Virus record (IMG/VR): IMGVR_UViG_3300028615_000137
Span: 1-64,000 of that record
DNA: 64,000 nt
Reading direction: 5' to 3' (one strand)
Source of the DNA: a virus
Position 1 is the stretch's first letter. Every line of letters starts with the position of its first letter. This document shows, piece after piece, positions 1 through 13,939 of this stretch. The translations under genes were made by a program, and so were the position numbers. The notes beneath the pieces were generated by a model. The model saw nothing but the letters and a program-made list of their open reading frames with translations. It made no database searches and had not been told where the DNA came from.

Positions 1-244
1 TCGACAAGAACTTATCGAAAAGTATGAAAAGGGGGAAAGGGATTTTGAAGGGGTAGATCTCAGCTATGCGGATCTGGGTTACCTCAATCTCAAGGATGCA
101 AACTTCGACTGGGCAAATCTTGAAGGTGCAAATCTCGAGAATGCGGAGTTCAGATACACAAAACTTGAAAATGCGAATCTCAAGAATGCAGATCTTGAAG
201 GTGCCGATCTATACTGTGCGAACCTCGAAGGTGCAAATCGTTAG
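1..244 (+). CDS. Pentapeptide-repeat protein, 5' end outside window
   Basis: Manual translation from nt 2: RQELIEKYEKGERDFEGVDLSYADL...ANLEGANR*, stop TAG 242-244; same leader as neighbours. Confidence 0.9.
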   Translation, partial: RQELIEKYEKGERDFEGVDLSYADLGYLNLKDANFDWANLEGANLENAEFRYTKLENANLKNADLEGADLYCANLEGANR

Positions 245-372
245 CTGAACAATTACACTATAGGTGTAACAAATTTTAGACATTTTTCTCAGCTTGAGCT
301 TGCACAGTGGTTCCACTCTGCTAGTCTATATGTTGAGGCAAGGGAGAAAACAAAATGGAAAAGAAAATGACT
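239..372 (+). repeat. Intergenic cassette repeat type I, copy A (palindrome + promoter + RBS + start)
   Basis: cgttagctgaacaattacactataggtgtaa...agcttgagcttgcacag...gctagtctatatgttgaggcaagggagaaaacaaaatggaaaagaaaatgac; recurs at ~757, ~1380 and inverted at ~4936-5069. Confidence 0.95.
300..327 (+). promoter_or_regulatory. Putative sigma-70 promoter with extended -10
   Basis: TTGCAC-N16-TAGTCT preceded by TGn; same at 815-842, 1443-1470 and (-) 4980-5007. Confidence 0.6.
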
Positions 373-777
373 CGACAAGAAGTTGTACAAAAGTGTGAAA
401 ATGGGGAAATAGATTTCCGAGGCGCAGATCTCAGTGGACAGGATCTAAGCGGACTGGATCTAAGCGGAGTGGATCTCGAAGGTGTAAATCTCAAGAATGC
501 AGATCTAGAAGGGGCAGATCTCAGGGACGCAAATCTCGAGAATGCGGTTCTCAGGGACGCAAATCTCAAGGGGGCAAATCTCAGTTTTGCAAATCTCAGC
601 GGTGTAAATCTAAGGGGTGCAGATCTCGAAGGGACAATCCTTCAGGATGCGGATCTCAGGGACGCAAATCTTGAAGGTGCAATCCTTCAAGATGCGGATC
701 TCATCTGTGCAAACCTTGAAGGTGCAAACCTTGAAGGTGCGGTTATCTATCTTGGTAACAGGAAAATTACACTATAG
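355..777 (+). CDS. Pentapeptide-repeat protein
   Basis: Leader MEKKMTRQEVVQKCENGEIDF followed by A[DN]Lxx repeats; RBS agggag. Confidence 0.95.
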   Translation: MEKKMTRQEVVQKCENGEIDFRGADLSGQDLSGLDLSGVDLEGVNLKNADLEGADLRDANLENAVLRDANLKGANLSFANLSGVNLRGADLEGTILQDADLRDANLEGAILQDADLICANLEGANLEGAVIYLGNRKITL

Positions 778-876
778 GTGTAAACAATTTTTAGACAATT
801 TTCTTAGCTTGAGCTTGCACAGCGGTCAAAGGCTGCTAGTCTATATGTTGAGGCAAGGGAGAAAGCAAAATGGAAA
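757..876 (+). repeat. Intergenic cassette repeat type I, copy B
   Basis: ttacactataggtgtaa 767-783, promoter motif 815-842, RBS. Confidence 0.95.
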
Positions 877-1046
877 ACAACAGCATCATCGGCACGGTAG
901 ACTTCGAAGCGCTCAATCGCGAGATCACGAACTTCGAGCTTGCAAATGCGCAGTGGGAGGGTGATGGCGAACAGAACGAAACGGAAACTGAAATTTTGTT
1001 CACCATCGAGTTCAAGAGCCGCTTACGACACTCGGATAGAGGCTAA
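870..1046 (+). CDS. Small acidic hypothetical protein (58 aa) in a cassette slot
   Basis: ATG 870 directly after the conserved RBS; MENNSIIGTVDFEALNREITNFELANAQWEGDGEQNETETEILFTIEFKSRLRHSDRG*. Confidence 0.7.
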   Translation: MENNSIIGTVDFEALNREITNFELANAQWEGDGEQNETETEILFTIEFKSRLRHSDRG

Positions 1047-1064
1047 AGCCGAGCTAGAAGGTAG

Positions 1065-1385
1065 AGCAGCGGACTAGATCTCGGTGGGGTAGATCTCAAG
1101 GGTGCAAACTTTGAAGGTTCACTTTTAGATGGCGCAAATCTCAAGTGTGCAAATCTCAACCTTGCAGATCTCAGGTATGTAAATCTCGAGAATGCAGTTC
1201 TCAGGGACGCAAATCTTAGGGGAGCAGATCTCAGCGGTGCAAATCTCAAGGGTGCAGAAATCAGGGATGCAAACCTTGAAGGTGCAAATCTTGAATATGC
1301 AGATCTCAAGAATGCAGATCTCAGGTATGTAAATCTCAGCGGTGTAAAACTCAAGGATGCAAATCTAGAGGGTGCTGTCCGTTAG
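1065..1385 (+). pseudogene. Headless pentapeptide-repeat gene (open frame, no leader or start)
   Basis: [18 protein letters not shown]...ANLEGAVR*; in-frame TAG at 1062-1064 upstream, no ATG. Confidence 0.8.
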
Positions 1386-1511
1386 CTGAACAATTACACT
1401 ATAGGTGTAACAAATTTTTTAGACAATTTTCTTAGCTTGAGCTTGCACAGCGGTCAAAGGCTGCTAGTCTATATGCTGAGACGAGGAGAAAATTTTATGA
1501 AGAAAATGACT
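1380..1511 (+). repeat. Intergenic cassette repeat type I, copy C
   Basis: cgttagctgaacaattacactataggtgtaa (palindrome 1394-1410), promoter motif 1443-1470. Confidence 0.95.
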
Positions 1512-1772
1512 AGGCAAGAAATTATCGAAAAGTATGAAAAGGGGGAACGAGATTTCCAAGAGGTAGATCTTAGTGGAGTAAATCTAAGAGGACTGGATCT
1601 AAGCGGAGTAAATCTTGAAAATGCGGATCTCAAGAATGCAGATCTAGAAGGGGCAAATCTCAAGAATGCAGATCTAGAAGGGGCAAATCTCAGGTATGCA
1701 AATCTCAGGTATGCAAATCTTGAAGGCGCAAATCTACAAGATGCAAATCTTGAAGGGGTAATCTGGCGGTAA
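1497..1772 (+). CDS. Pentapeptide-repeat protein
   Basis: MKKMTRQEIIEKYEKGERDF + repeats; start moved to ATG 1497 after RBS aggag. Confidence 0.93.
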   Translation: MKKMTRQEIIEKYEKGERDFQEVDLSGVNLRGLDLSGVNLENADLKNADLEGANLKNADLEGANLRYANLRYANLEGANLQDANLEGVIWR

Positions 1773-1810
1773 CAGGAAAATTACACTATAGGTGGAAAAT
1801 GAGTAAGTAA

Positions 1811-2032
1811 ATGACAAGACTAGAAATTATAGAAAAGTATGAAAGCGGGGAACGAGATTTTCGATGGAAAAATCTAAGCGGAGTAGATCTAAGCGGAGTA
1901 GATCTAAGCGGAGTAAATCTGGAAGGTGCAGATCTAGAAGGGGCAAATCTCGAGAATGTGGTTCTCAAGGGTGCAGATCTAAGTGGGGCAGATCTCAGGT
2001 ATGCAAATCTAGAGGGGGTAATCTGGCGCTAG
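1811..2032 (+). CDS. Pentapeptide-repeat protein (short)
   Basis: MTRLEIIEKYESGERDF + repeats; same C-terminus (ANLEGVIWR) as previous gene. Confidence 0.9.
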   Translation: MTRLEIIEKYESGERDFRWKNLSGVDLSGVDLSGVNLEGADLEGANLENVVLKGADLSGADLRYANLEGVIWR

Positions 2033-2206
2033 TGGGGTCTCGCCTGGGTGGCAACTAGGGGATACTTGTAAGGAGGCTTAGACGGGCGTATGGAAGGCTT
2101 CACGCACCTGTTAGAGCGTCTTGGCAGGGGAGAATAACGCTTGAGTATACAATCGGGAAAACAAGGGGTGTGACATTTTGACAATTTGTGTGGTAGAGTT
2201 GGTGAC

Positions 2207-3007
2207 ATGAAGGGTCAACGAATGACGCCAAAAGAGTACGAGTTGTGGCTCCAGGCGTTCCGCGAATGTGGGGAAAATTGGTCGCGTGTAGCCCGTTGGA
2301 TCCAAAAGAGAGTGCCGGGTCGTGAGGCGACAACTGCTCAAGTTGTCAAGAGGGGTTACCAAAAAGGTTGGCCAAATCACGATGGTGATTTTCCCCCTAT
2401 TTTCGAAGTGTTAGCGGCTGAGACTGCGAAAGCGGAAGCCGAGATAGCGAAAAAAACTCGGCTAGCGATCGTGGAAGATGCGATAGCGGGCGATGCCGAC
2501 GCCATTGCACTCGCGCATGACTATCAGGTCCAAGCCAAAGCAGAAGAAGGCATTTTAGTAGGAAAAGCAAGGAAAAACTTGCTTGAAGTCATGGATTCGT
2601 CAAAAAATCTGCTAACTGGAATAAACCGATTGTCTGCAAGTGTTGGAAAACATTTGGAAAGAATGGAAATCGATTCCGATGATCCCGAAGGCGCCACAAA
2701 TGCGGTTCAGCTATTGTGGAGAGCGTCGACGGCCCTTCGAGCCGCTACGGCGGCAACAAAAGACGTCCTAGAGTGCGAGCGGCTTGTGATGAATAGGCCC
2801 ACTACAGTGGTCGAGCACCGGGTTGGAGCCAGTGCAACCACTGAAGAAACGCTCAGGCATATCCAAAAGAACTACGAGAATTCGATCCGAATGCAGGAAC
2901 GGATAGCCAGACGGGAGCGCTTGGAAGCCGAACTCGAAGAAAAACATAAGAAAACCTACATTGATGTAGAAGTGCTAGACACTGGAAAGCTTGAAGAAAG
3001 CGAATAG
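2207..3007 (+). CDS. Probable terminase small subunit
   Basis: N-terminal HTH-like segment, long helical middle, C-terminal ERLVMNRPTTVVEHRV...YIDVEV resembling TerS; start uncertain (2186/2207/2222). Confidence 0.55.
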   Translation: MKGQRMTPKEYELWLQAFRECGENWSRVARWIQKRVPGREATTAQVVKRGYQKGWPNHDGDFPPIFEVLAAETAKAEAEIAKKTRLAIVEDAIAGDADAIALAHDYQVQAKAEEGILVGKARKNLLEVMDSSKNLLTGINRLSASVGKHLERMEIDSDDPEGATNAVQLLWRASTALRAATAATKDVLECERLVMNRPTTVVEHRVGASATTEETLRHIQKNYENSIRMQERIARRERLEAELEEKHKKTYIDVEVLDTGKLEESE

Positions 3008-3049
3008 TTTCCAAAAGTCGAAAAAATTTGTAAACCTTGAGTTAAATCT

Positions 3050-3085
3050 TTGGCTTAGCTTGTGCATTAGCACATCATGTGCCAA
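3050..3085. promoter_or_regulatory. Imperfect palindrome of two facing sigma-54 (-24/-12)-like motifs
   Basis: + TTGGCTTAGCTTGTGCA 3050-3066; - TTGGCACATGATGTGCT 3085-3069; both GG-N10-GC. Confidence 0.45.
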
Positions 3086-3315
3086 ATTGTCTAAACTGTG
3101 GCAAAAAAGTCACGCAATTGCGCACCATGTAAGAAAGCACTTATGTGCAAATCTGCCATAGTACTTTGCCCATTTGTAGTACCATTACCCTACAAGTATA
3201 TCGATCCTCCCTAGGCTTATATACACCCAACTATGGCAGAAATGCACATCTTACCATACATGTATGGCCATTATGGGCCCTGGTAGGTGCATGTGTGCAC
3301 ATCCGGGCTTGATAC

Positions 3316-3352
3316 TTGGCACGAGCTTGTGCATTAGCAAGTTGTGTGCCAA
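3316..3352. promoter_or_regulatory. Second palindrome; sigma-54 consensus on - strand
   Basis: - strand TTGGCACACAACTTGCT (3352-3336) fits YTGGCACRNNNNTTGCW; shares agcttgtgcattagca with the first copy. Confidence 0.55.
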
Positions 3353-3708
3353 TTAGGTAACACCTGAAAAATGATCAAAAAAACAATTGCCTCCAGAACA
3401 GCGCCTGCTAGGATATAGGTATGACTAACGCAGATATTCATGTGTATCAGACTAGGGACGGCTGCTATAGGTGTAGGGTCACATATGGTAACACCACTGT
3501 GTACACTGGTAAACACATCACCCTATATGCGGCTGTGTGGAATGCTGCTAAGCTAGCAGAGAAGGGAAAGAATGGATAATATGGAAACTATGAAAATGAC
3601 TTGGGGTGCAAGAGTAGTGCCATTCTTGTACTAATGATACCTAACCCCGTAGCTCACCCCAAGCGGCGCTTGATAGCTTGTGAGATGTGAACGCCTGGTG
3701 ATGAAGTG

Positions 3709-3724
3709 TGTTTCACGTGGAACA
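3709..3724. promoter_or_regulatory. parS: parS site (chromosomal ParB-binding palindrome)
   Basis: TGTTTCACGTGGAACA; reverse complement TGTTCCACGTGAAACA equals the canonical bacterial parS 16-mer; lies in non-coding DNA. Confidence 0.8.
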
Positions 3725-3729
3725 TTCAG

Positions 3730-3793
3730 GGTAATCACTTACACTATCGTACAGTGTAGGTAATCACCCACACTGTGGAACAAGGTGGGTAAC
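3730..3793 (+). repeat. Degenerate 29-bp tandem repeat
   Basis: ggtaatcac at 3730 and 3759, ggtaac at 3788; units contain internal dyads. Confidence 0.6.
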
Positions 3794-3880
3794 TGTAGGT
3801 TAACGTAAGGTAATAACTTTTTTCGCCTACAGTTTCCCCGAATTGGGCTCACTCGTTTGCCCAGTGCAGGACCACACAGA

Positions 3881-3956
3881 TTTTTTTACAATTTTCTGAC
3901 AAAATTTGCTAATATACCACTAAAATCAGCTACAGAGATTTGATATTTTTTTTTTT
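3881..3956 (-). repeat. Intergenic repeat type II, copy 1
   Basis: tttttttacaattttctgacaaaatttgctaatataccactaaaatcagctacagagatttgatattttt identical at 4541-4615; first ~40 bp also at ~5605-5645. Confidence 0.95.
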
Positions 3957-3964
3957 ACAATTTT

Positions 3965-4006
3965 CTGAGAAAAATGTCTAAAAATTGTTTACACCTATAG
4001 TGTAAA
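3965..4006 (-). repeat. Partial type I repeat (palindrome part)
   Basis: ttacacctatagtgtaa 3989-4005 plus ctgagaaaaatgtctaaaaattgt. Confidence 0.85.
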
Positions 4007-4011
4007 TATCC

Positions 4012-4512
4012 TTAGCTATGGATGGTACCATTGAGATTTGCACCTTCTAGATCTGCCCCACTTAGATTTGCATGCTGAAGATCTGCAAACCTGAGATCTG
4101 CCCATTTGAGATCTGCCCATTTGAGATCCGCACCCTTGAGATTTGCGCCTTTGAGTTCTGCAAAGCTGAAATTTGCACCCCGAAGATCTGCACCTTCTAG
4201 ATCTGCACAGTAGAGAACCACACCCTTGAGAACTGCAAACCTGAGATCTACCCTTTCAAGATCTGCCCCACTGAGATTTGCACCCCTGAGAACTGCACCC
4301 TTGAGATTTGCCCCTTCGAGTTCTGCATTCTTGAGAACTGCAAACCTGAGTTCTGCACAGTAGAGATTTGCATGCTGAAGATTTGCTGTTCTAAGATCCA
4401 CTCCACTTAGATCTACTCCACTTAGATCTACTCCGCTGAGATCTGCACCTCGGAAATCTCTTTCCCCATTTTCATACTTTTCTATTAATTCTTCTCTTGT
4501 CATTTTCTTCAT
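4012..4512 (-). CDS. Pentapeptide-repeat protein
   Basis: MKKMTREELIEKYENGERDF + repeats. Confidence 0.95.
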   Translation of the reverse strand: MKKMTREELIEKYENGERDFRGADLSGVDLSGVDLSGVDLRTANLQHANLYCAELRFAVLKNAELEGANLKGAVLRGANLSGADLERVDLRFAVLKGVVLYCADLEGADLRGANFSFAELKGANLKGADLKWADLKWADLRFADLQHANLSGADLEGANLNGTIHS

Positions 4513-4540
4513 AAAATTTTCTACCTATATTGTAATTTTT

Positions 4541-4615
4541 TTTTTTTACAATTTTCTGACAAAATTTGCTAATATACCACTAAAATCAGCTACAGAGATT
4601 TGATATTTTTTTTTT
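4541..4615 (-). repeat. Intergenic repeat type II, copy 2
   Basis: Identical to 3881-3955, 660 bp away. Confidence 0.95.
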
Positions 4616-4952
4616 ATTCGACCTGGATAAACTTTTTGCCATAAATTATTACACGTACCCCTTCAAGGTTTGCATTCTTGAGAACTGCCCTTTCGAGATC
4701 TGCATTTTCGAGATCTGCATACCTGAGAACTGCAAAGCTGAGATCTGCATTTTCGAGATCTGCATACCTGAGAACTGCAAAGCTGAGATCTGCCCCTTCA
4801 AGGTTTGCGTCCCTTAGTTCTGCCCCACTTAGATTTGCGTTCCTTAGTTCTGCACCCTTGAGATCTACTCCACTAAGATCTGCGCCTCGGAAATCTCTTT
4901 CCCCATTTTCATACTTTTCTATTAATTCTTCTCTTGTCATTTTCTTTTCCAT
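4614..4952 (-). CDS. Pentapeptide-repeat protein
   Basis: MEKKMTREELIEKYENGERDF + repeats; internal 45-bp duplication (ADLSFAVLRYADLEN x2). Confidence 0.95.
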   Translation of the reverse strand: MEKKMTREELIEKYENGERDFRGADLSGVDLKGAELRNANLSGAELRDANLEGADLSFAVLRYADLENADLSFAVLRYADLENADLERAVLKNANLEGVRVIIYGKKFIQVE

Positions 4953-5069
4953 TTTGTTTTCTCCCTTGCCTCAACATATAGACTAGCAGCCTTTGACCGC
5001 TGTGCAAGCTCAAGCTCAAAAAATTGTCTAAAAAATTGTTTACACCTATAGTGTAATTGTTCAGCTAAC
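4936..5069 (-). repeat. Intergenic cassette repeat type I, inverted copy D
   Basis: Reverse complement of 239-372/1380-1511, with palindrome 5040-5056 and promoter motif 4980-5007. Confidence 0.95.
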
Positions 5070-5577
5070 GGAAGGCACCTTCTAGGTTTGCACCATTGAG
5101 ATTTGCACCTTCTAGATTCGCCCTTTCGAGATCTGCACCTTCAAGGTTCGCACCCTTGAGATTTGAATAGCTGAGGTCTGCAAACCTGAGATCTGCACCC
5201 TCTAGAACTGCCCCACTGAGATCTGCTCCCGCTAGATCTGCACCCCTAAGATCTGCATACCAGAGATCTGCATATTCAAGATCTGCATTCTTGAGATTTG
5301 CAAAGCCGAGTTTTGCATTCTCGAGATTTGCATATTCAAGATTCGCATGTCTGAGTTCTGCACCCTTGAGATTTGCATTCTTGAGATTTGCATTCTTGAG
5401 ATTTGCAAAGCCGAGTTTTGCATTCTCGAGGTTTGCAAATAGGAGATTTACTCTGCTTAGATCCAGTCCGCTGAGAACCAGTTCGCTTAGATCTACTCCA
5501 CTAAGATCTGCGCCTCGGAAATCTCTTTCCCCATTTTCATACTTTTGCACAACTTCTTCTCTAGTCATTTTCTTCAT
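5065..5577 (-). CDS. Pentapeptide-repeat protein
   Basis: MKKMTREEVVQKYENGERDF + repeats. Confidence 0.95.
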   Translation of the reverse strand: MKKMTREEVVQKYENGERDFRGADLSGVDLSELVLSGLDLSRVNLLFANLENAKLGFANLKNANLKNANLKGAELRHANLEYANLENAKLGFANLKNADLEYADLWYADLRGADLAGADLSGAVLEGADLRFADLSYSNLKGANLEGADLERANLEGANLNGANLEGAFR

Positions 5578-5653
5578 AAAATTTTCTACCTATATTGTAA
5601 TTTTTTTTTTTACAATTTTCTGACAAAATTTGCTAATATACCACTTTCTTTCC

Positions 5654-6166
5654 TTAGACCAGTGGTAGCCCCATAGTTTGTTGATCGCGGAAGCCGCCAT
5701 CAAGATTTGCGAAACTGAGATCTGCTCTTTTAAAAACTGCCCCTCTGAAATCTGCACCCCTAAGATCTGCATACATAATATTTGCATCCCTGAGATTTGC
5801 ATATTCAAGATTCGCATGTCTGAGTTCTGCACAATTTAGGTTTGCATACCTGAGGTATGCACGGCTAAGTTTTGCACCTTCTAGATTTGCATATTCTAGA
5901 TCTGCACGGTAGAGATTTGCACCTTCTAGGAATGTACCTTCAAGATTTACACGGTAGAGATCTGCAAGGTTGAGATTTGCACACTTGAGAACCGCATTGC
6001 TAAGATTTGCACACTTGAGAACCGCATTGCTAAGATCTGCATAGCTGAGATTTGCTGATCTAAGATCCAGTCCTCTTAGATTTACTCCACTAAGATCTAC
6101 TTCTTGGAAATCTCTTTCCCCATTTTCGTACTTTTGTACAACTTCTTTTCTAGTCATTTTCTTCAT
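5654..6166 (-). CDS. Pentapeptide-repeat protein
   Basis: MKKMTRKEVVQKYENGERDF + repeats. Confidence 0.95.
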   Translation of the reverse strand: MKKMTRKEVVQKYENGERDFQEVDLSGVNLRGLDLRSANLSYADLSNAVLKCANLSNAVLKCANLNLADLYRVNLEGTFLEGANLYRADLEYANLEGAKLSRAYLRYANLNCAELRHANLEYANLRDANIMYADLRGADFRGAVFKRADLSFANLDGGFRDQQTMGLPLV

Positions 6167-6178
6167 AAAATTTTACTT

Positions 6179-6373
6179 TCACCCTTGCTTTTCTTCGTAA
6201 AGTGGCAGCATAGGATACGGACATAGTTCTGCTAGTGTCCTGCTGCTAAGACTCAAGCCAAATCCACAACTTTTCTTCAATGCCTCTGGATGTGCGCAAT
6301 ATGGTCCATCTGGGTCGCAACCACCAAATTGACAAGTGTAACATTTACGTTCAACTTTATTCATTTCCTTCAC
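6179..6373 (-). CDS. Small Cys-rich hypothetical protein
   Basis: CxxC...C...C; coupled to neighbour. Confidence 0.65.
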   Translation of the reverse strand: MKEMNKVERKCYTCQFGGCDPDGPYCAHPEALKKSCGFGLSLSSRTLAELCPYPMLPLYEEKQG

Positions 6374-6786
6374 CGATCGAATTTGGTCTCTATCCCTATC
6401 AACAGCTTATTTCTATAATCGTCCAAAGCTTCTTGAGGAGTATCAAAACATTCACTAACCACGTCGTCAGAGTCGAAGACTACATATTTATTAGAATAGG
6501 TAGAATTAAGAAACAAATCGAAATGTTCGATTTGCCAATGTTCATATAATTCGTCCCAAATGAAAGTAATCTCTTTTCCATACCAAGTAAGAGTAATATT
6601 TTCTTGGGATTCATCCCCCTTATTCGTAGGTTCCGAATTATTCCAAACGATATCTAGAAACTTCTCCATTTCTGCTTGACTAAAAATAAGTACATTATTG
6701 GGCAATCCGCAGACTATGTCAAAAACTTTATGCTTTGAATCTTCAAAAATATAATAGAGTTTTTCACCTATTTGTATCGGTTTCAT
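6370..6786 (-). CDS. Hypothetical protein
   Basis: ORF with ATGA-type overlaps on both sides. Confidence 0.7.
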   Translation of the reverse strand: MKPIQIGEKLYYIFEDSKHKVFDIVCGLPNNVLIFSQAEMEKFLDIVWNNSEPTNKGDESQENITLTWYGKEITFIWDELYEHWQIEHFDLFLNSTYSNKYVVFDSDDVVSECFDTPQEALDDYRNKLLIGIETKFDR

Positions 6787-7091
6787 TGCAATCCTAGATC
6801 CTCACTATCATTTATATAATGTAGCGGATTATAGCCGCTGTCCAAGCTTATATTTAAATTTTTTGCCATATTTAGAAAATCTTGATCGTCTGTCAGAATT
6901 TTGAACATATCTTCTTCTAATTCAAAATACACATCGGAATGTTTACCAAGAATTTCACCAAAATAAACTACTGTACATTTTCCAATTTCTTCTTGAAGTT
7001 TGCTCCACTCGTTTTCGTTTAGAACAAACCTTCCACTTACGACACCAAGGCGACCATAATCTACAAACATTTCAATAAAATAATTTTTCAT
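6783..7091 (-). CDS. Hypothetical phage protein (acidic)
   Basis: ORF with VYFGEILGKHS motif; coupled. Confidence 0.7.
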   Translation of the reverse strand: MKNYFIEMFVDYGRLGVVSGRFVLNENEWSKLQEEIGKCTVVYFGEILGKHSDVYFELEEDMFKILTDDQDFLNMAKNLNISLDSGYNPLHYINDSEDLGLQ

Positions 7092-7264
7092 TTTAAAAGT
7101 CTTTCTAAAGATTTGGTAATCGAATCCATTCTTTTTACATTACATTCAAAGCACCAGAATGGGGACCACCGGGTTCCGGCCGGATTATTACATTCAATAG
7201 TAATGCATGTCTTACCTGTATGATATTTCTTACTATTACCTTCATGTTTAGGATCGTTATACAT
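7088..7264 (-). CDS. Small Cys-rich hypothetical protein (58 aa)
   Basis: Manual: MYNDPKHEGNSKKYHTGKTCITIECNNPAGTRWSPFWCFECNVKRMDSITKSLERLLK*; RBS ggagg. Confidence 0.65.
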   Translation of the reverse strand: MYNDPKHEGNSKKYHTGKTCITIECNNPAGTRWSPFWCFECNVKRMDSITKSLERLLK

Positions 7265-7342
7265 TCTATTTTCTTTCCTCCTCTTTTGTACAATTGTCTA
7301 AAACTCCACTTGTCAATCTCACTTCCCTATTTATAAAATTAG

Positions 7343-7415
7343 TGGGTCGTACAAGAATCGAACTTGTAACCGCCCGGTTAAAAGCCGGATGCTCTGCCAA
7401 TTGAGCTAACGACCC
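7343..7415 (-). tRNA. tRNA-Lys(UUU), CCA not encoded
   Basis: GGGTCGTTAGCTCAATTGGCAGAGCA-TCCGG CTTTTAA CCGGG-CGGTTACAAGTTCGATTCTTGTACGACCCA; full cloverleaf. Confidence 0.93.
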
Positions 7416-7421
7416 TAAAAT

Positions 7422-7616
7422 TCATCCTTCTTCATTGTATCCTACCGTTCTAAACTTATATAGCCACAAGCACTGTTTGCATTGTAGCTCTTCTTTCATA
7501 CTGTGCAACTCTTTTAGAGTCCTAACAGCGCGTCTACCTTCCGTCGAACGGCTTCGATAACAAAATAGCGTCTTGCCGTCTTCAGTCAGATGTATCTTTT
7601 TTACAGAATTTCTCAT
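7422..7616 (-). CDS. Hypothetical protein
   Basis: ORF track; H...C...CxxC. Confidence 0.55.
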   Translation of the reverse strand: MRNSVKKIHLTEDGKTLFCYRSRSTEGRRAVRTLKELHSMKEELQCKQCLWLYKFRTVGYNEEG

Positions 7617-7741
7617 ACAAAAACTTCAAAATCTCTACTTTTCCTAGTTGTTCGTAATATCTAGGTGTGCATCTATCTGAACCGTCACTTATCTTATCCA
7701 AGTCGTCTAAATGTGCACAATACATTTCTTCTAGCTTTGTT

Positions 7742-8344
7742 TCAATGCTCATTATTTACTTTCTTTACGAAATTTTTAATGTCGTCATAACTATTGGGAT
7801 ACATAATTATTTTAGTATCATCCGGCAACAACAATTCTAATGAATAATAGTTTTTATCATTCATTCCAAAAAAATCTATTACAAATTCTGTATCTTCTTT
7901 GAAAACGTTCGAATAATAATCATTTACTATTGTTACTAAATCGCCAACGTTAAAATCTTCTTCGGATTCTTGCATCCAAGGTTTAAAAGTTTTCAAATAC
8001 TCGATTGATGGAAAAATTCCTTCGAATCTAAAAGCTTTATCGTCTATGTAAATATCAGCAAAAGGCTTACAAAATGGAAAATCTATTCTATCAATTTGAC
8101 TTGGTAATACACCTTGGCGACCTAACCATCTTTGCATTTGCAAAACGTCCCTTGATTCCACATTTCTACACGAGAAGATATTGACTTCAAAATCGTCGCT
8201 ATCAACGAGCTTAATCAAAAAATCGATGGCATCTTGTACTGGAGGATCTGTAATAGGTACCCCCGGCCCTTCATATCCAGATTTAAAGCTATTTAAAACT
8301 CCGTCGAAGTCTATACTGACTATTGTTCTTCGTTTACTATTCAT
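7742..8344 (-). CDS. HAD-superfamily phosphatase (nucleotidase-like)
   Basis: Motif I IDFDGV, IFSCR, KPFADIYIDDKA. Confidence 0.8.
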   Translation of the reverse strand: MNSKRRTIVSIDFDGVLNSFKSGYEGPGVPITDPPVQDAIDFLIKLVDSDDFEVNIFSCRNVESRDVLQMQRWLGRQGVLPSQIDRIDFPFCKPFADIYIDDKAFRFEGIFPSIEYLKTFKPWMQESEEDFNVGDLVTIVNDYYSNVFKEDTEFVIDFFGMNDKNYYSLELLLPDDTKIIMYPNSYDDIKNFVKKVNNEH

Positions 8345-8419
8345 TGTTTAACTCTTATTTAAGATTTAGTAATAGATTATTCATATCTTTTTTATTCATA
8401 TTATTTCTCCTAAAATTAG

Positions 8420-8493
8420 CAGAACGTATAGGACTCGAACCTATAACCTACAGCTTAGAAGGCTGTTGCTCTATCCCGTTGAGCTAACGTTCC
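8420..8493 (-). tRNA. tRNA-Arg(UCU), CCA not encoded
   Basis: GGAACGTTAGCTCAACGGGATAGAGCA-ACAGC CTTCTAA GCTGT-AGGTTATAGGTTCGAGTCCTATACGTTCTG. Confidence 0.93.
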
Positions 8494-8792
8494 TTATTAA
8501 AATCTTTTTCAATTTCTTTTAATATATCGTAAACTTCTTTTGAAGTGGTTTCTTTTTCCCCTATTTTCTTTATCATTTCTGGTCTTTGATTTTTATACGG
8601 CGAAAATCTGGCTGTACTAGTAAAACTAGTAGGATTTTCGCCGCCAATTTTGAGAGAACTTTGTTGATACTCATGATGATGCAATTGTAGATATTCCCGT
8701 AGTTCTTTTATTTCAGCTTTCAAGGACATAATTTCTTCACGAAGAATAGAACGCAATTCGGAAATCTCGTTAAAAGCATCAGGCATTTTCAA
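8484..8792 (-). CDS. Hypothetical protein
   Basis: ORF track; last codons overlap tRNA-Arg 5' end. Confidence 0.6.
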   Translation of the reverse strand: MKMPDAFNEISELRSILREEIMSLKAEIKELREYLQLHHHEYQQSSLKIGGENPTSFTSTARFSPYKNQRPEMIKKIGEKETTSKEVYDILKEIEKDFNKER

Positions 8793-9009
8793 TTTCCTTC
8801 AACAGTCTGGCTCGCTCTTTCTTAGCTCCAATGTTCTTTCCGAGACGCTTGTCCAGCCGCTTAATCTGTTGCTTTGGAGTAAGATTATCGCGAACCTTCA
8901 TACGTTCTTCGTGTTCAAAGCGCTTTTGCTTTCTTTTATCTTCAGCGCGAACGTTACCAAACTTTGTCTTACGTATTTCCATTGTTAAATACCCATTCCC
9001 CTTCTTCAC
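8779..9009 (-). CDS. Small basic hypothetical protein
   Basis: LTPKQQIKRLDKRLG..GAKKERARL motif; start may be the internal Met. Confidence 0.65.
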   Translation of the reverse strand: MKKGNGYLTMEIRKTKFGNVRAEDKRKQKRFEHEERMKVRDNLTPKQQIKRLDKRLGKNIGAKKERARLLKEIENA

Positions 9010-9331
9010 CTTTAACCAAGAATTTTTGGTTTATATGTTTTCTTATCACAGATTTAACTAAAAGCAAGGCATAATTCATAGCTTCTTTATCATTTTTCTG
9101 ACCCATAAGAAACTCGGAAACTGCTGTAGTAACCAATCGCTTATAAAGTTCTGGAACATCTTTTTCAAAGATTAGGTAGATACCGTTGTCGTTATCAAAC
9201 CAAGCGATTGATATTTCGGGAATTTCTCTATCTGGATTTGTTACTTCGCTATAACAAGTTCCTAATTTCGAGTCCCGAATTATTGGAGCTCCAACGTAAT
9301 ATAGTGTAGGAGTTTTTTCTTCACTCGACAT
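8969..9331 (-). CDS. Hypothetical protein
   Basis: ORF track. Confidence 0.6.
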   Translation of the reverse strand: MSSEEKTPTLYYVGAPIIRDSKLGTCYSEVTNPDREIPEISIAWFDNDNGIYLIFEKDVPELYKRLVTTAVSEFLMGQKNDKEAMNYALLLVKSVIRKHINQKFLVKGEEGEWVFNNGNT

Positions 9332-9989
9332 ATTTAATATCCGAACGAATTAGCTTTGAATCATTTGCTATCGAATACAAAAAGTAATTTAAACAACCGG
9401 AACAAATTTCATACCCTTGATTTTGATATTTAAACATACGTCGAAGAGTAGATAAACCGAAAGTAATTTCGTTAATTACCATTCGCTTTCTGCCCACGTC
9501 CCAAAGTGTATAATCGCCCGTATGTAGCCTAAAGTCCGTAGGACCTTCCTTACTCAAAGCAAACTGACACAACGTGAAATCGAAAGTGTCCAACAAATTT
9601 TCTACGCAATCATAAAACCCAATGTTTATAAGTTGAATTTTATATTCTTTATCATAAAATGTTTCCGCTTCGTTTCCAATTAAAAATGTTGGTTCCTTTG
9701 AATGGGTAAATTTATAGGTAATTGCATGAGCATTTTCTTCAATCAATTCATGGCCCATTTTTTCAATGTTTTTCTTTAATTCATCAAATTGAACAGAATT
9801 ATGGCAGAAAAAGTCGATATCGCCTTTATCTAGCGGTTGTTTCGTAAGAAGACGTCTTAACAATCCTCCCGCTATCCAAGGACCTTCGTCGATTTTTCCC
9901 ACGTGTGGAAGATTTTCCAATAAATAGTACAATTCTACAAGATCAATATCACTTCTAGCACAAATTTCACTTAGATTATATGTCTGCAT
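9321..9989 (-). CDS. Nucleotidyltransferase (CCA-adding/poly(A) polymerase head-domain-like)
   Basis: WIAGGLLRR...GDIDFF and LLDTFDFTLCQFA motifs. Confidence 0.75.
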   Translation of the reverse strand: MQTYNLSEICARSDIDLVELYYLLENLPHVGKIDEGPWIAGGLLRRLLTKQPLDKGDIDFFCHNSVQFDELKKNIEKMGHELIEENAHAITYKFTHSKEPTFLIGNEAETFYDKEYKIQLINIGFYDCVENLLDTFDFTLCQFALSKEGPTDFRLHTGDYTLWDVGRKRMVINEITFGLSTLRRMFKYQNQGYEICSGCLNYFLYSIANDSKLIRSDIKYVE

Positions 9990-10106
9990 TTTCTTTCAAA
10001 TATTCCTTTACACAGCGTTCTATTTCTTTGCGACAAATTTTAAGAATAAAAGGTATGCTAAATCCTATTATCCCGACCAATACTAATGTATAAAATGTTT
10101 CGTCCA

Positions 10107-10313
10107 TCATAGTTCTATTTTTGGCATGTATTTTCTATACAATGCTTCTCCAATCTCTGCTTCAACTTCTTTCAATTTTTCTCTTATTGCATTTCTTTCC
10201 TTTTCGCCACGATTGAATCTAATCGCATCACCTTCTCGGTAATACCAATCGTGTCTCTTCAGAAGAGTTTCCAATTCTTCTATTTTTTCTTTATTTATTG
10301 ACATCCCTTGCAC
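10107..10313 (-). CDS. Hypothetical protein
   Basis: LKRHDWYY motif; coupled. Confidence 0.6.
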   Translation of the reverse strand: MQGMSINKEKIEELETLLKRHDWYYREGDAIRFNRGEKERNAIREKLKEVEAEIGEALYRKYMPKIEL

Positions 10314-10537
10314 TTACCAGGCTTAGATTGAAAGATAGCAGAACCGTCTGGATGTACAATAGAAATCAACTGCGGTTTAACATTTTCTTTAAAGTCTTGT
10401 TGCATTCTTTCTTCAGCTAATTCTTTAACACTGGGATAAGCATGCATTGCTTCTTCTGATAACAAAATGATTCTGCGCATATTTGACCAGGCATAAATCC
10501 CGTTACGTATTTCCCATATTGCTTTGTAATATTTCAT
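10295..10537 (-). CDS. Hypothetical protein
   Basis: ORF track, ATGA overlap. Confidence 0.6.
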   Translation of the reverse strand: MKYYKAIWEIRNGIYAWSNMRRIILLSEEAMHAYPSVKELAEERMQQDFKENVKPQLISIVHPDGSAIFQSKPGKCKGCQ

Positions 10538-11556
10538 TCGATCAAATGGGGGTGAGATTCCCGCGTGCCATTAGTACTTACTTTGACAAATTTAGCATTT
10601 TCTCTAAGTTGCGCTAAATCCGAGGCTCCGCAGTAGGACATTCCAGACCTGACACCGTCCATAATCGAATAGAGTACTTTACTTACTTTACCCTTATAAG
10701 GAACCAAAGTTTCAGCCCCTTCAATATGCTCAATCTCTGAATTGGCTTGTTCTTTGGAAGCATAAGAAGCACTTCCCCTATATATTTTGTACAATTTTCC
10801 ATTATGCTTTATTACATTTCCAGGAGTTTCGTCTGTACCAGCCAGCATCGAGCCTAACATAACCGCATTGGCACCCGCTGCTAGGCATTTTACGATGTCG
10901 CCAGAACTCCTAATGCCCCCATCGGCTATTATTCCGACTTCATGAGTATCTGTATATCGCCTTTCTTGGGCAATATCCAGGACACTTTGCAATGTAGGAT
11001 ATCCACATCCTGTTTGAATGCGAGTCGTACAAAGACTACCGCCACCGATACCTACTTTTACAGCAATTCTACTAAAATCGCTTTCTTCTATAGATTTAAT
11101 CAAAAATTTATAGGCTTCTTTAGTAGCAATATTGCCTACGATTACGTTTATTTTTGGAAAATTTTGTAGGATTTCTTTCAGAACTTTCAACGTTCGATTG
11201 CTATGGGCATGCGCAACGTCGATGCAAACCAACTTCACAGTATCACAACTATGAATTCTATCTATCCAATCATAGTCAATGCCCACTGAAATTCCGCACG
11301 TGCACATTGTCACTTGTCTTGCTTGTTGATCAACACTATTAAATCGATGAATAATGCCCAATCCACCGTGTGCATGCATCGTGCTTGCCATTTTCCATTC
11401 GCAAATAGTAGCCATGTTTGCGGCAATAATTGGCATCGTTACATGTATGTTGCCAATTCTCGAACTGGTATCTATATTCTTTCGACTTTCTATATCACTA
11501 CGGTTAGGAACCAATAGAACATCGTCGAATGTTACAGCTTCTGTCACACATACCAT
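10534..11556 (-). CDS. guaB: IMP dehydrogenase/GMP reductase family (no CBS domains)
   Basis: [53 protein letters not shown]; IMPDH versus GMPR not resolved. Confidence 0.88.
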
Positions 11557-11712
11557 GAAAATAATTCTTCCTTTTTTTCTACTTCTTTAGGGATATTATC
11601 GATCAAATTATCGTTTGCTTCTTTTAACGTGTCGCCAACTCCATAATATTTTCCTACTATGACGATAAAATTATTCTTTTCTGTGCTATAAAAGCTTTTA
11701 AAAATCATTCAT

Positions 11713-11922
11713 TCATTCTCCCTTCAAATATTCTTCGGCGGATTCGTACTGTATTTCGATGATCTGTCTAAAATATAGATAATCATTTTCCGCTCTACAC
11801 GAAAAATTACAGTTATCGCCATGACAATGACGTATTTCCCTATTATGCTGAGTCATTTCTGTTCCGTAATAATGACAACCGCACTTTGGACACGTGAACT
11901 CTAGATATTTTGAAACTTTCAT
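11713..11922 (-). CDS. Small zinc-ribbon protein
   Basis: CPKC...CH..C. Confidence 0.6.
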   Translation of the reverse strand: MKVSKYLEFTCPKCGCHYYGTEMTQHNREIRHCHGDNCNFSCRAENDYLYFRQIIEIQYESAEEYLKGE

Positions 11923-11956
11923 ATTATTTTTTTAGCAAATAACGAAAGTTATGCAA

Positions 11957-12502
11957 TCAAATTAACGAAATTAAATTTTCTACATCTCCGAAAAGTGCAG
12001 GAAAGTAATCCCATGCATCTACACCCACGTGTATACAATTTCCTTGTATCTTTTTCTTGCTGTGTGTGTGGCCGTGTATAAGCACTTCACCCTTGTTCTT
12101 TTGGGGTCTGCGACCTTCGAAGCGCTTATCTTTACTGTCTGGTAAATAGGGGAAATGGTTAACTCTGCAAGTTTTTCCACCTATGTTGGTAACAAATTCT
12201 TCCAAGACCAAATCGAACCCCATTTTTGCCATTCTGCTTTGACTGCTATCGTGATTGCCCCTAACCAATATTTTATAGCCATTTAATTTGTACATTATTT
12301 TGTTTTTGGCATAGTCTGGAGCACAAAAAAAGCAATCCCCTGTCCATACAACTACATCTTCTTTGCCAATTACTTGGTTATAACGAAAGATTAATTCATC
12401 TTCCATGTGCAATATTGTTGTAAATGGTCGTTGGCAAAAGCCAATGATATTGTGATGGCCAAAATGGGGATCACTAAAAAATGCTTTTATCAGCTTATTC
12501 AT
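11957..12502 (-). CDS. Calcineurin-like metallophosphoesterase
   Basis: SDPHFGH, GD, GNHD, HGHTH, VGVD; start moved to ATG 12502. Confidence 0.88.
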   Translation of the reverse strand: MNKLIKAFFSDPHFGHHNIIGFCQRPFTTILHMEDELIFRYNQVIGKEDVVVWTGDCFFCAPDYAKNKIMYKLNGYKILVRGNHDSSQSRMAKMGFDLVLEEFVTNIGGKTCRVNHFPYLPDSKDKRFEGRRPQKNKGEVLIHGHTHSKKKIQGNCIHVGVDAWDYFPALFGDVENLISLI

Positions 12503-12504
12503 GT

Positions 12505-12705
12505 TTAAAAAATATATGCGCTCAAAACACCTATAAAAGCGCTTTGTATACCAATTACTACCCAAAGCGCCATGAACCTATCTTCATGTTTTTCAGAAGT
12601 TTTCATATGCTCTTCTTTCCAATTTCTTAAATTGTTTATGCAATCTTCCAACAAATTAATTTTGACTTCCATCTTTTGCATTAGGGCCCTGTCTTCTCTA
12701 TTCAT
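12505..12705 (-). CDS. Hypothetical membrane protein
   Basis: Coiled coil plus C-terminal hydrophobic helix. Confidence 0.6.
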   Translation of the reverse strand: MNREDRALMQKMEVKINLLEDCINNLRNWKEEHMKTSEKHEDRFMALWVVIGIQSAFIGVLSAYIF

Positions 12706-13111
12706 TGTTTTCCTCTTTCGGTGGTATGTGTGCTAAATCGTTTCTGTTCAAATACTCTACACCCAATGCTCGAAATACATAATCGATTATAGATGTAGAA
12801 AATTTTATATTTTCATGCCCTCTGACAGAGCCAGAAGGCTCAAATCTTGTAAAGGTAAAATGTTCTACGAACGTTTCCAAAGGAACACCGTGTTGTAATC
12901 CTATTGATACGGCGCGTGTGAAACAATTGATCAATGATTGATCTACGTTTCCTTCCTTATTCACATTCAAGAAGATTTCCCCTGGTTGTCCAGTATCATA
13001 TTCACCAATAGTCAAAAATATTCTCCTATCGCCAATTTCAACTTCTTGAATATGACTATTGCGCTTCTTAGGCAATTTATGTCTAGTAGTATTTGGGGGC
13101 CCAAATTTCAT
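12698..13111 (-). CDS. Stand-alone C-terminal (TSCPD-type) domain of class II ribonucleotide reductase
   Basis: GEY..GQPGEIF..KEG, AVSIGLQHGVPLETFVEHFTFTRFEPSG, TSIIDYVFR. Confidence 0.85.
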   Translation of the reverse strand: MKFGPPNTTRHKLPKKRNSHIQEVEIGDRRIFLTIGEYDTGQPGEIFLNVNKEGNVDQSLINCFTRAVSIGLQHGVPLETFVEHFTFTRFEPSGSVRGHENIKFSTSIIDYVFRALGVEYLNRNDLAHIPPKEENNE

Positions 13112-13515
13112 TAATTTTTCCTCGGAAGGATGTAAACGTGAATGATCATATTTTCTTGTCTAGCCTTCCTAATCATATCTAAAGTGCCGGTACTTTCCGC
13201 GTCCCATATTGCGACACAAGCATCACCGTATTTAGCCATCGCGGAATTTCGCTTTACACCTGCACTAAAATCTTTTTTGCCAGTTACTTCGTTGACCCAC
13301 TTCGCCTCAAATCGTTTTACATCTATACCTCTTTTTTGAGCCCATTTTTCACCCAATCTATCGGCTCCTCTAGCAGAGCCGCTAACAACTTCACATATGT
13401 CTTTATGCGAAGTTGTACAATATAGTTGTATAAATTCTGCCATGGCAGCATCCACGTCTTCTTGTTTGACGTTTTCTCTACTTCCAGCTACGACAACTTT
13501 CATATCACTAAACAT
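13111..13515 (-). CDS. SLOG-family (YspA/DUF2493-like) protein
   Basis: VVAGSR, VVSGSARGAD, AGVKRN..MA, WD..STGT..MI. Confidence 0.85.
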   Translation of the reverse strand: MFSDMKVVVAGSRENVKQEDVDAAMAEFIQLYCTTSHKDICEVVSGSARGADRLGEKWAQKRGIDVKRFEAKWVNEVTGKKDFSAGVKRNSAMAKYGDACVAIWDAESTGTLDMIRKARQENMIIHVYILPRKN

Positions 13516-13939
13516 TTCTCACCTTTTTATATGTATTAAATAGCGAAATTATTTGAAGATCCGGTTCCCCATAAAATTCACTAAAAAGTATATCTCTAAT
13601 TCCTACGCTATATATCGCCTTTAAACAGTCAAAGCAAGGTTCGGTCGTGCAATATAGCTTGGAATCTTCTAGACGTATACCATTTTTTGCAGCTTGGAAG
13701 ATAGCATTTTGTTCGGCGTGAATTGTTCTCTTACAGTGACCATCAATCATTAGATGACCAACGTCGTCGCAATGTTCTTCATTTGGTAGAGAACCATTGT
13801 ATCCAGTACTCAATATAGTTTTATCTCTAACTATTACCGCGCCGACGTGTTTCCTGGCACACGTGGCTCTTGTTGCTACCATCTTTGCTATGTCGATGAA
13901 GTAATTGTCCCAATCTTTTCTTGTTTCTTGCTTTACCAA
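13508..13939 (-). CDS. dCMP deaminase
   Basis: RATC..VGAVI, TGYNG, HAEQNA, PCxxC. Confidence 0.92.
   Translation of the reverse strand: MVKQETRKDWDNYFIDIAKMVATRATCARKHVGAVIVRDKTILSTGYNGSLPNEEHCDDVGHLMIDGHCKRTIHAEQNAIFQAAKNGIRLEDSKLYCTTEPCFDCLKAIYSVGIRDILFSEFYGEPDLQIISLFNTYKKVRNV

Follow-up and report, generated by a model that had tools for sequence, protein, structure and literature searches.

How a phage comes to carry a family of small repeat-protein genes that match one another in pieces, on both strands and between separate gene blocks, is the question raised by the start of IMG/VR virus record IMGVR_UViG_3300028615_000137. Its positions 1 to 64,000, here called the window, were analysed. 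The genes encode pentapeptide-repeat proteins (PRPs), a group that includes the Rfr/Np275-type beta-helices and the DNA mimics Qnr, MfpA, and McbG. A first-pass annotation had noted patchwork identity tracts between PRP genes and had attributed them to recent gene conversion or crossover rather than simple tandem duplication. We present here a follow-up of that proposal and conclude that the mosaicism is real and probably driven by recombination, with paralogues exchanging short stretches of DNA and promoter units.

The window is the first part of a circular myovirus contig of 106,349 bp assembled from a metagenome. Window positions count from the contig start, and positions given as genome coordinates refer to the full contig. 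The contig ends overlap by 91 nt, and the assembly is therefore circular or circularly permuted. The genome contains 14 PRP genes (g1 to g14), encoding 65 to 170 amino acids (aa). Nine lie in two convergent arms at 1-2032 (plus strand) and 4012-6166 (minus strand), and the other five (g10 to g14) lie at genome 92.3-93.2 kb, 97.3-97.9 kb, and 104.1-104.5 kb. All 14 PRP bodies match PF00805 with 42.2 to 201 bits (gathering cut-off, 20.2 bits), and in all 14 the period of 5 is unbroken, with 8 to 29 A(D/N)LXX units in one register after the leader. The cap M(E/S)KKMTRxE..KYE.GERDF opens 13 of the 14 genes. By sequence, g9 matches the solved PRP chains 4yfo_A (E 5e-43), 3du1_X (1e-28), and 2j8k_A (1e-26), and the proteins may share the right-handed quadrilateral beta-helix fold of solved PRPs.

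The three identity tracts listed in the first-pass annotation were recovered as described. Positions 1139-1172 (+) equal the reverse complement of 5957-5990 at 34/34 positions (g3 body and g9), 1549-1600 (+) equal that of 6063-6114 at 51/52 (g4 and g9, with equal offsets in the two genes), and 5323-5363 equal 5792-5832 on the same strand at 41/41 (g8 and g9). The claim that g9 has pieces matching three paralogues was borne out and extended, as exact tracts link it to five partners: g4 (38 nt, or 52 nt with one mismatch), g11 (42 and 36 nt), the g3 body (34 nt), g8 (41 and 25 nt), and g12 (26 nt). Each match lies on a different diagonal, and descent from a single duplicate therefore cannot produce g9. 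An all-against-all comparison of the 14 genes gave 52 exact matches of at least 24 nt, among which are 31-nt matches of g2 to g4 and, in the C-terminal module, to g12; a repeat finder listed 91 inverted pairs between the arms. Recent duplications of units inside PRP genes were also seen.

The tracts within the repeat domains are discrete islands, because their flanks (75 nt on each side, same diagonal) are 41 to 65% identical and thus at the background for unrelated in-register units (mean, 57.7%), which is the repeat core. The flanks of the 34-nt tract match at 31/75 and 44/75 positions and those of the 41-nt tract at 49/75 and 43/75. Values outside this range occur only at the conserved leader (g4-g9), at a 14-nt C-terminal tail (g2-g12), and at the out-of-frame g14 body (g1-g14). 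Tracts of 34 to 42 nt show zero differences, versus 12 to 20% in the leaders of the same gene pairs; therefore, uniform divergence cannot leave 38 to 42 nt unchanged.

The first-pass annotation had suggested a permutation check against the low-complexity codon vocabulary of the repeats. Leaders were removed, leaving 269 in-register 15-nt units (4,035 nt), and five nulls were run with 300 replicates each, the codon shuffle both within genes and pooled. The longest observed tract between genes was 42 nt, and 16, 7, 5, and 2 gene pairs shared exact 25-, 30-, 34-, and 40-mers, respectively. Shuffling the order of units within genes gave mean pair counts of 4.9, 0.48, 0.13, and 0.01 (maxima, 12, 5, 2, and 1); pooling units across genes, 5.4, 0.62, 0.13, and 0.03; shuffling codons within repeat phase, whether within genes or pooled, at most 0.5, 0.02, 0.01, and 0; and a phase-specific first-order codon Markov chain, 4.63, 0.53, 0.14, and 0.01 (maxima, 14, 3, 3, and 1). 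The observed 7, 5, and 2 pairs for 30-, 34-, and 40-mers were reached by no shuffle under any of the five nulls. Tracts of at least 41 nt appeared in 0.7 to 1.7% of the unit-shuffle and Markov replicates. Two cross-arm pairs and four partners of g9 share at least 34 nt, and each of these counts was reached in 0 of 1,000 unit shuffles. Numbers and lengths of tracts thus lie above every null, and the check did not overturn the proposal of exchange.

Recombination is also indicated in the leader, which was compared over 105 nt from its ATGAC in 30-nt segments; 57 of the 105 nt are nonrepeat sequence. The nearest paralogue of g9 changes along the leader from g12/g13 (1 difference) to g10 (1) and then g4 (0), and the segment nearest to g4 has 11 to 15 differences to g12/g13. 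The nearest paralogue of g4 changes from g11 (0) to g9 (0), and that of g8 from g12/g13 (2) to g7 (0). The pairwise homoplasy index (PHI) test over the 105 nt, with 51 informative sites, gave P values of 0.0002 to 0.0003. The maximum chi-square test gave an uncorrected P value of 0.0001 for g9 with g13-like and g4-like parents and values of 0.03 to 0.52 for four other triplets.

The DNA between the genes is modular as well. Type-I units consist of a 17-bp palindrome, TTACACTATAGGTGTAA, an A/T-rich stretch, and the promoter-like site TTGCAC-N13-TGC-TAGTCT, followed by GGGAGA and ATG; type-II units consist of a T-rich stretch followed by TTACAATATAGGTAGAAAATTTT-ATG. The first-pass annotation had described one unit, copy D, as a mosaic, and we read this as the unit upstream of g7. 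It does combine the -35/-10 spacer AGCGGTCAAAGGC of units 778-869 and 1386-1496 with the ribosome-binding site (RBS) and start GGGAGAAAACAAA-ATGGAAAAG of unit 245-354. This spacer is the majority form, present in six of the seven type-I promoters with unit 245-354 as the lone outlier, and copy D is more simply described by saying that unit 245-354 alone carries a private spacer. Both spacer variants are predicted to fold into a hairpin at the same place, between -35 and -10. Two pairs of variable sites in the type-I units show all four combinations.

The promoter-like site occurs nine times in the genome, seven of them before PRP genes, and its -10 element agrees with the consensus at only 3 of 6 positions. 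The palindrome, as TTACACTATAGGTGTAA or the variant TTACAATATAGGTAGAA, stands at the end of almost all PRP genes; its core occurs 13 times in the genome, adjoining PRP genes in 12, and is predicted to form a 7-bp stem (-5.2 kcal/mol; z, -2.3). The stop codons of g2 and g12 are located within the palindrome, with GGGAGA and then ATG following, and the 3′ module GGTAACAGGAAAATTACACTATAG encodes GNRKITL-stop in these two genes (760-783 for g2). After g4 (1770-1797), the module is read in another frame; the TAA stop falls within GGTAAC, and the rest of the module is noncoding. A type-I promoter and RBS module without the palindrome precedes a non-PRP gene at genome 101305-101360. On its opposite strand, the palindrome carries TTGTCT-N16/17-TATAGT, a 9/12 match to sigma-70 directed back into the preceding gene. 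Two other roles were considered and dropped: an integron-like attC function of the palindrome, as general scans of 136 open reading frames (ORFs) found no integrase, and a T7-type phage RNA polymerase promoter, suggested by the core ACTATAGG, as the same scans found no such polymerase.

Codon use at conserved repeat positions was compared with that in the other long ORFs of the genome. Alanine is encoded by GCA in 87% of cases in the repeats versus 23% in the other ORFs, leucine by CTC in 52% versus 7%, aspartate by GAT in 98% versus 68%, and serine by AGY in 100% versus 33%. Codon choice runs against the genome bias, so that conservation of the repeat extends beyond the protein to the DNA itself. 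Such homogeneity is what repeated copying between units and genes would predict; a young or imported gene family could be an alternative source of it. The features of the locus are listed in Table 1.

Table 1. Pentapeptide-repeat genes, intergenic units, and associated features (window positions unless marked as genome)
Feature	Position	Strand	Details
g1, 3′ part of PRP gene wrapping the contig end	1-244, start at genome 106242	+	PF00805, 86.3 bits
Type-I unit, private spacer variant	245-354	+	Palindrome 253-269; TTGCAC-N13-TGC-TAGTCT 300-327; GGGAGA, ATG
g2, PRP gene, 140 aa	355-777	+	128.3 bits; stop codon within next palindrome
Type-I unit	778-869	+	Palindrome 767-783; promoter-like site 815-842
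g3, chimeric gene	870-1385	+	58-aa ORF 870-1046; leaderless PRP body 1065-1385 (110.9 bits)
Hybrid unit before g4	1386-1496	+	Type-I palindrome and promoter; type-II RBS and start GAAAATTTT-ATGAAG
g4, PRP gene, 91 aa	1497-1772	+	First 39 nt identical to g11; nt 66-103 identical to g9
g5, short PRP gene	1811-2032	+	Preceded by ATGAGTAAGTAA at 1799-1810
Single-copy centre between the arms	2033-4011		ORFan 2186-3007 (+); noncoding DNA with iteron-like repeats; chimeric unit
Chimeric type-I/type-II unit after g6	~3880-4011		Type-I front, type-II back
g6, PRP gene, 166 aa	4012-4512	-	62 nt of leader identical to g7
Type-II unit	4513-4613	-	~85 nt common to unit 5578-5653
g7, PRP gene, 112 aa	4614-4952	-	Internal 54-nt duplication at 45-nt offset
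Type-I unit on opposite arm (copy D, as read here)	4953-5064	-	Palindrome 5040-5056; promoter-like site 4980-5007
g8, PRP gene, 170 aa	5065-5577	-	From exact-match search and PF00805
Type-II unit	5578-5653	-	
g9, PRP gene, 170 aa, hub of the mosaic	5654-6166	-	PF00805, 201 bits
Palindromes	253-269, 767-783, 1394-1410, 1781-1797, 3989-4005, 4519-4535, 5040-5056, 5584-5600		
g11	genome 92652-93164		
g12	genome 97288-97485		
g14	genome 104035-104539, including 35 nt upstream		Frameshifted by one base where identity to g1 ends

Exchange between paralogues, as the first-pass annotation proposed, is supported by the nulls, the islands, the five partners of g9, the leader, and the units. Other parts of that proposal stood less well: recency holds only in a relative sense, as the contrast between tracts and leaders of the same pairs; the data fit gene conversion, repeated crossover, and template switching alike; and plain tandem duplication of units inside genes occurs as well. 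Several results weigh against recombination as the source of the mosaic. A tract of at least 34 nt appears somewhere in the family in ~12% of unit-shuffle and Markov replicates (P, ~0.12), and a 34-nt tract alone therefore proves little. Restricted to the 57-nt nonrepeat leader, PHI gives P values of 0.03 to 0.07 and is not significant after the near-duplicates g14, g13, and g7 are dropped, and the maximum chi-square triplets were chosen post hoc and would fail correction for all triplets. Two of the sites in the four-gamete pairs could mutate recurrently, one being a run-length indel and the other a single substitution. The reading of the cassettes as sigma-70 promoters is weak, since a consensus promoter scan did not list the site; the scan found 6 promoter-like sites versus 9.3 expected from shuffles, and promoters and terminators showed no enrichment in it. 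No related genome was found against which the likeness of orthologues and paralogues could be compared. The contig is also a metagenome assembly, and Logan contigs with k=31 break inside tracts longer than 31 nt; linkage across the tracts therefore rests on the original assembly.

Simple duplication followed by divergence would make the tracts remnants of an ancestral order of units, lengthened by the small codon vocabulary. That vocabulary is indeed very restricted, unit duplications inside genes are evident, and the chance frequency of 34-nt tracts and the weak PHI result on the short leader fit this account. We nonetheless consider it unlikely. It does not yield the joint counts of shared 30-, 34-, and 40-mers or a gene with four long partners on different diagonals, it does not explain flanks at background around tracts without differences in pairs whose leaders have diverged, and it leaves the switches of nearest paralogue along the leader unaccounted for. 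Selection at the nucleotide level, for an RNA structure or binding site, could keep stretches identical across genes and would suit the strong departure of repeat codon choice from that of the genome. We regard it as highly improbable, as the positions and partners of the tracts differ in each pair, Rfam matched nothing in 1-8000 except the tRNA and no family in the PRP arms, and no common motif was seen beyond the repeat core.

An assembly artefact, in which paths in the repeat graph were misjoined or strain alleles merged into chimeric genes, was weighed with read evidence from the Logan contigs of run X1, the probable source run, and of run X2. Several features would suit it: the contig is metagenomic, with 85% of its sampled words in run X1; it ends where a 144-nt repeat shared by g1 and g14 ends; g14 is frameshifted exactly at the boundary of that repeat; and the X1 depth is 263 for 1887-3615 and 658 for 3586-3955, 7- to 17-fold above the rest of the phage (26 to 41 for arm contigs and 37.5 for a 24-kb contig from 6071). 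A tract with two left and two right flanks exists, however, whatever the linkage of those flanks, and misjoins cannot create sharing; the 34- to 52-nt tracts are shorter than usual reads; and the X1 contigs reproduce five arm segments (840-1168, 1143-1407, 1663-1900, 4099-4477, and 5043-5313) without differences, at a depth of 26 to 41 that is close to the 37.5 of the phage. We judge an artefact to be quite improbable. Six Logan "joints" (depth, 20.7 to 30.6) were considered as rearrangements and rejected; they are read as cross-mapping of g10 to g14 because only 1-6400 was compared, and the 1615>6055 contig alone could be assigned to one particular paralogue (g11).

If the mosaic arose by recombination, the likeliest mechanism would be homologous and microhomology-guided exchange among the paralogues, for which three kinds of homology could serve. 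One would be the near-identical intergenic cassettes of ~110 nt, each running from a stop codon in or beside the 17-bp palindrome through an A/T-rich stretch and a sigma-70-like site with a spacer hairpin to a Shine-Dalgarno sequence and start; another, the conserved 5′ leader of ~60 nt that encodes the N-terminal cap; and the third, the GCA-RAT-CTN core, repeated in frame and in register at 15-nt intervals. Exchange at cassettes and leaders would swap whole 5′ ends together with promoter modules, as may be seen in g1/g14, g12/g13, g6/g7, and the hybrid unit before g4. Exchange at the repeat cores would leave internal patches of 34 to 42 nt such as those gathered in g9 and would keep the reading frame and the beta-helix register. 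The arms are mutually inverted, so exchange between them would need no deletion. The phage encodes a UvsX-like protein (E 1e-39) and SbcC/SbcD-like proteins at genome 84.3-88.4 kb, and its own UvsX-like recombinase and SbcCD-like nuclease may carry out the exchange. The cassettes, from their sequence, may act as promoter/attenuator units.

The proteins could be acidic beta-helices that act on a host target at an early stage of infection, perhaps by mimicking DNA. The isoelectric point is at or below 5.1 in 11 of the 14, and the similarity to QnrB1 is weak (E 2e-7). The PRPs match PHROGs of unknown function, and the PADLOC defence library gave no match for 6 proteins. Matches to g9 were found in 473 phage records. 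The leader region gave 22 matches in the protein set, at up to 59% identity, and the cap ..ELLxxYxxGERDFxGxDL recurs in unrelated PRPs; these matches show no more than that such a cap is widespread among PRPs.

It is conceivable, though doubtful, that the PRP arms form a built-in diversity generator in which nucleotide-identical cores and portable cassettes provide in-frame, in-register crossover points. There is a similarly small chance that, within such a system, UvsX-type machinery reshuffles a repertoire of small acidic beta-helices aimed at host targets that vary, for instance proteins of defence or DNA handling. By analogy, the deep centre would then be either many variants that share the centre and have different arms or an over-replicated excised circle bearing an origin.

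Recombination among paralogues is evolutionarily ordinary; what has not been described before is its occurrence in this gene family, and our limited literature search, which is no proof of absence, found no report of gene conversion or concerted evolution in phage pentapeptide-repeat genes. Concerted evolution by gene conversion is a general concept for multigene families. Its likeness to the present case lies in identity stretches within otherwise diverged paralogues and in homogenised synonymous codons; the difference is that homogenisation is patchy here, with cores and cassettes homogenised and variable codons scrambled.

Exchange among T-even adhesins was reportedly described by Tetart et al. 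in 1996 and 1998, whom Trojet et al. cite for it. According to Trojet et al. (2011, PMC3157838), T-even tail-fibre adhesins are shuffled at the glycine-rich conserved motifs of gp38. There, as here, short conserved motifs alternate with variable segments, and exchange in or near the motifs yields chimeric proteins. In the adhesins, however, the exchange involves alleles of different phages in a structural gene, whereas here it involves 14 paralogues in one genome, and the motif in question is the repeat core, which returns at 15-nt intervals.

The intergenic units resemble the promoter-early stem-loop (PeSL) cassettes of T4-type phages described by Arbiol et al. (2010, PMC2839356) and Comeau et al. 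(2014, PMC4122927). Both are repeated units that run from the upstream stop via an A/T-rich stretch, a sigma-70-like pair, and a stem-loop, the latter two being putative in the present phage, to the Shine-Dalgarno sequence and start. The stem-loop of PeSLs often lies between -35 and -10, as predicted here. Both kinds of unit cluster among small genes of unknown function, and recombination between units swaps modules in PeSLs and probably here as well; for PeSLs, excised circles (PeSL mini-circles) have also been proposed. The present units differ in that their -10 element, TAGTCT, is weak; they contain the additional upstream palindrome, nearly all copies of which stand beside PRP genes; and they flank one gene family, not assorted ORFans. 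Kinship of this phage to T4 is also unsupported by its sheath protein: tblastn gave 13 records, all at up to 31% identity, with Bacillus phage BCD7 best (30.6%), followed by Streptomyces phages (24 to 26%), and none of the 13 was T4-like.

Compared with other PRPs (reviewed in PMC8145042), those described here have the uninterrupted register, the shared N-terminal cap, and a mostly acidic character in common with the family; they differ in being very small, in numbering fourteen in one phage, and in their weak similarity to QnrB1. An in-register deletion of 375 bp in a PRP gene of Caulobacter phage GB2A, described in PMC11053796, shows similar PRP plasticity elsewhere.

Phage PRPs are widespread, as the number of records matching g9 indicates, and no assigned role for them was found in the literature searched. 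The locus suggests that PeSL-like cassettes occur outside the T4 group and that a family of fourteen genes evolves by modular exchange, with a nucleotide-conserved repeat supplying frame-preserving crossover points. Should the shuffling be ongoing and under selection, the locus would offer a tractable view of a phage diversifying its repertoire of small proteins directed at the host; otherwise, it still gives a clean and quantified example of mosaicism among paralogues. A further lesson is that repeat-protein arrays in phages assembled from metagenomes should be checked at the level of reads.

Three of the PRP genes look damaged (g3, g5, and g14). The frame of g3 has stops between the 58-aa ORF and the PRP body (TAA at 1044 and TAG at 1062), and g3 is probably a dead gene. 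Its unrelated 58-aa ORF, which takes the place of the leader and sits behind a type-I unit, has no Pfam or PHROG match. The sequence ATGAGTAAGTAA before g5 is the g12/g13 MSKK-type start with the fourth codon turned into a stop, and g5 begins at the next ATG. The first 109 nt of g1 and the 35 nt upstream are identical to genome 104035-104178 in g14. The point at which g14 is frameshifted coincides with the end of the 91-nt terminal overlap of the contig; this boundary reflects either imprecise joining during recombination or an error of assembly or sequencing at the edge of the repeat.

Run X2 (2025; depth, ~2) contains short contigs of a relative of ~96% identity, with 4 to 8 differences per 170 to 280 nt, at 801-999, 2813-3010, 3121-3397, 5560-5792, and 6198-6369. 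The relative has an in-frame 6-nt deletion at 963, inside g3, and indels at 5600 and 5654 (the 3′ end of g9).

Up to 3881, the centre between the arms is single-copy in the genome. Its high depth may reflect sharing with other abundant genomes or variants, amplification, or a library artefact. The ORF at 2186-3007 has no relative in viral or metagenome contigs and matched only itself among 5.8 billion proteins. By eye, iteron-like direct repeats are present at 3729-3817 (GGTAATCAC twice, GGTGGGTAAC, GGTTAAC, and GGTAATAAC, with small palindromes between them), and this region could be an origin or packaging site.

Relatives of the locus were also sought by sequence. A megablast search of 1-8000 found no match among deposited phages. 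The g8 protein matched 75 loci in viral contigs, generic PRPs at 26 to 75% identity, none of which (0/75) carries the leader motif. A 33-nt promoter pattern had no match in viral contigs, and a back-translated leader pattern had none in viral, metagenome, and genome contigs.

PHROG scans covered 81 and 55 ORFs (136 in total) and found a contractile-tail set of portal, capsid protease, sheath, tube, baseplate, and tape-measure proteins, together with DNA polymerase, primase, a DnaB-like helicase, the UvsX-like recombinase, the SbcC/SbcD-like nuclease subunits, and terminase. Minus-strand transcription is confined to one 10-kb block at 4012-13939. The GC skew tracks the coding strand, with sign changes at ~4 kb and ~14 kb, and the PRP arms are placed where the two transcription directions converge. 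Genes for tRNA-Lys (TTT) and tRNA-Arg (TCT) lie on the minus strand at 7342-7415 and 8419-8493, respectively, just past the minus-strand arm.

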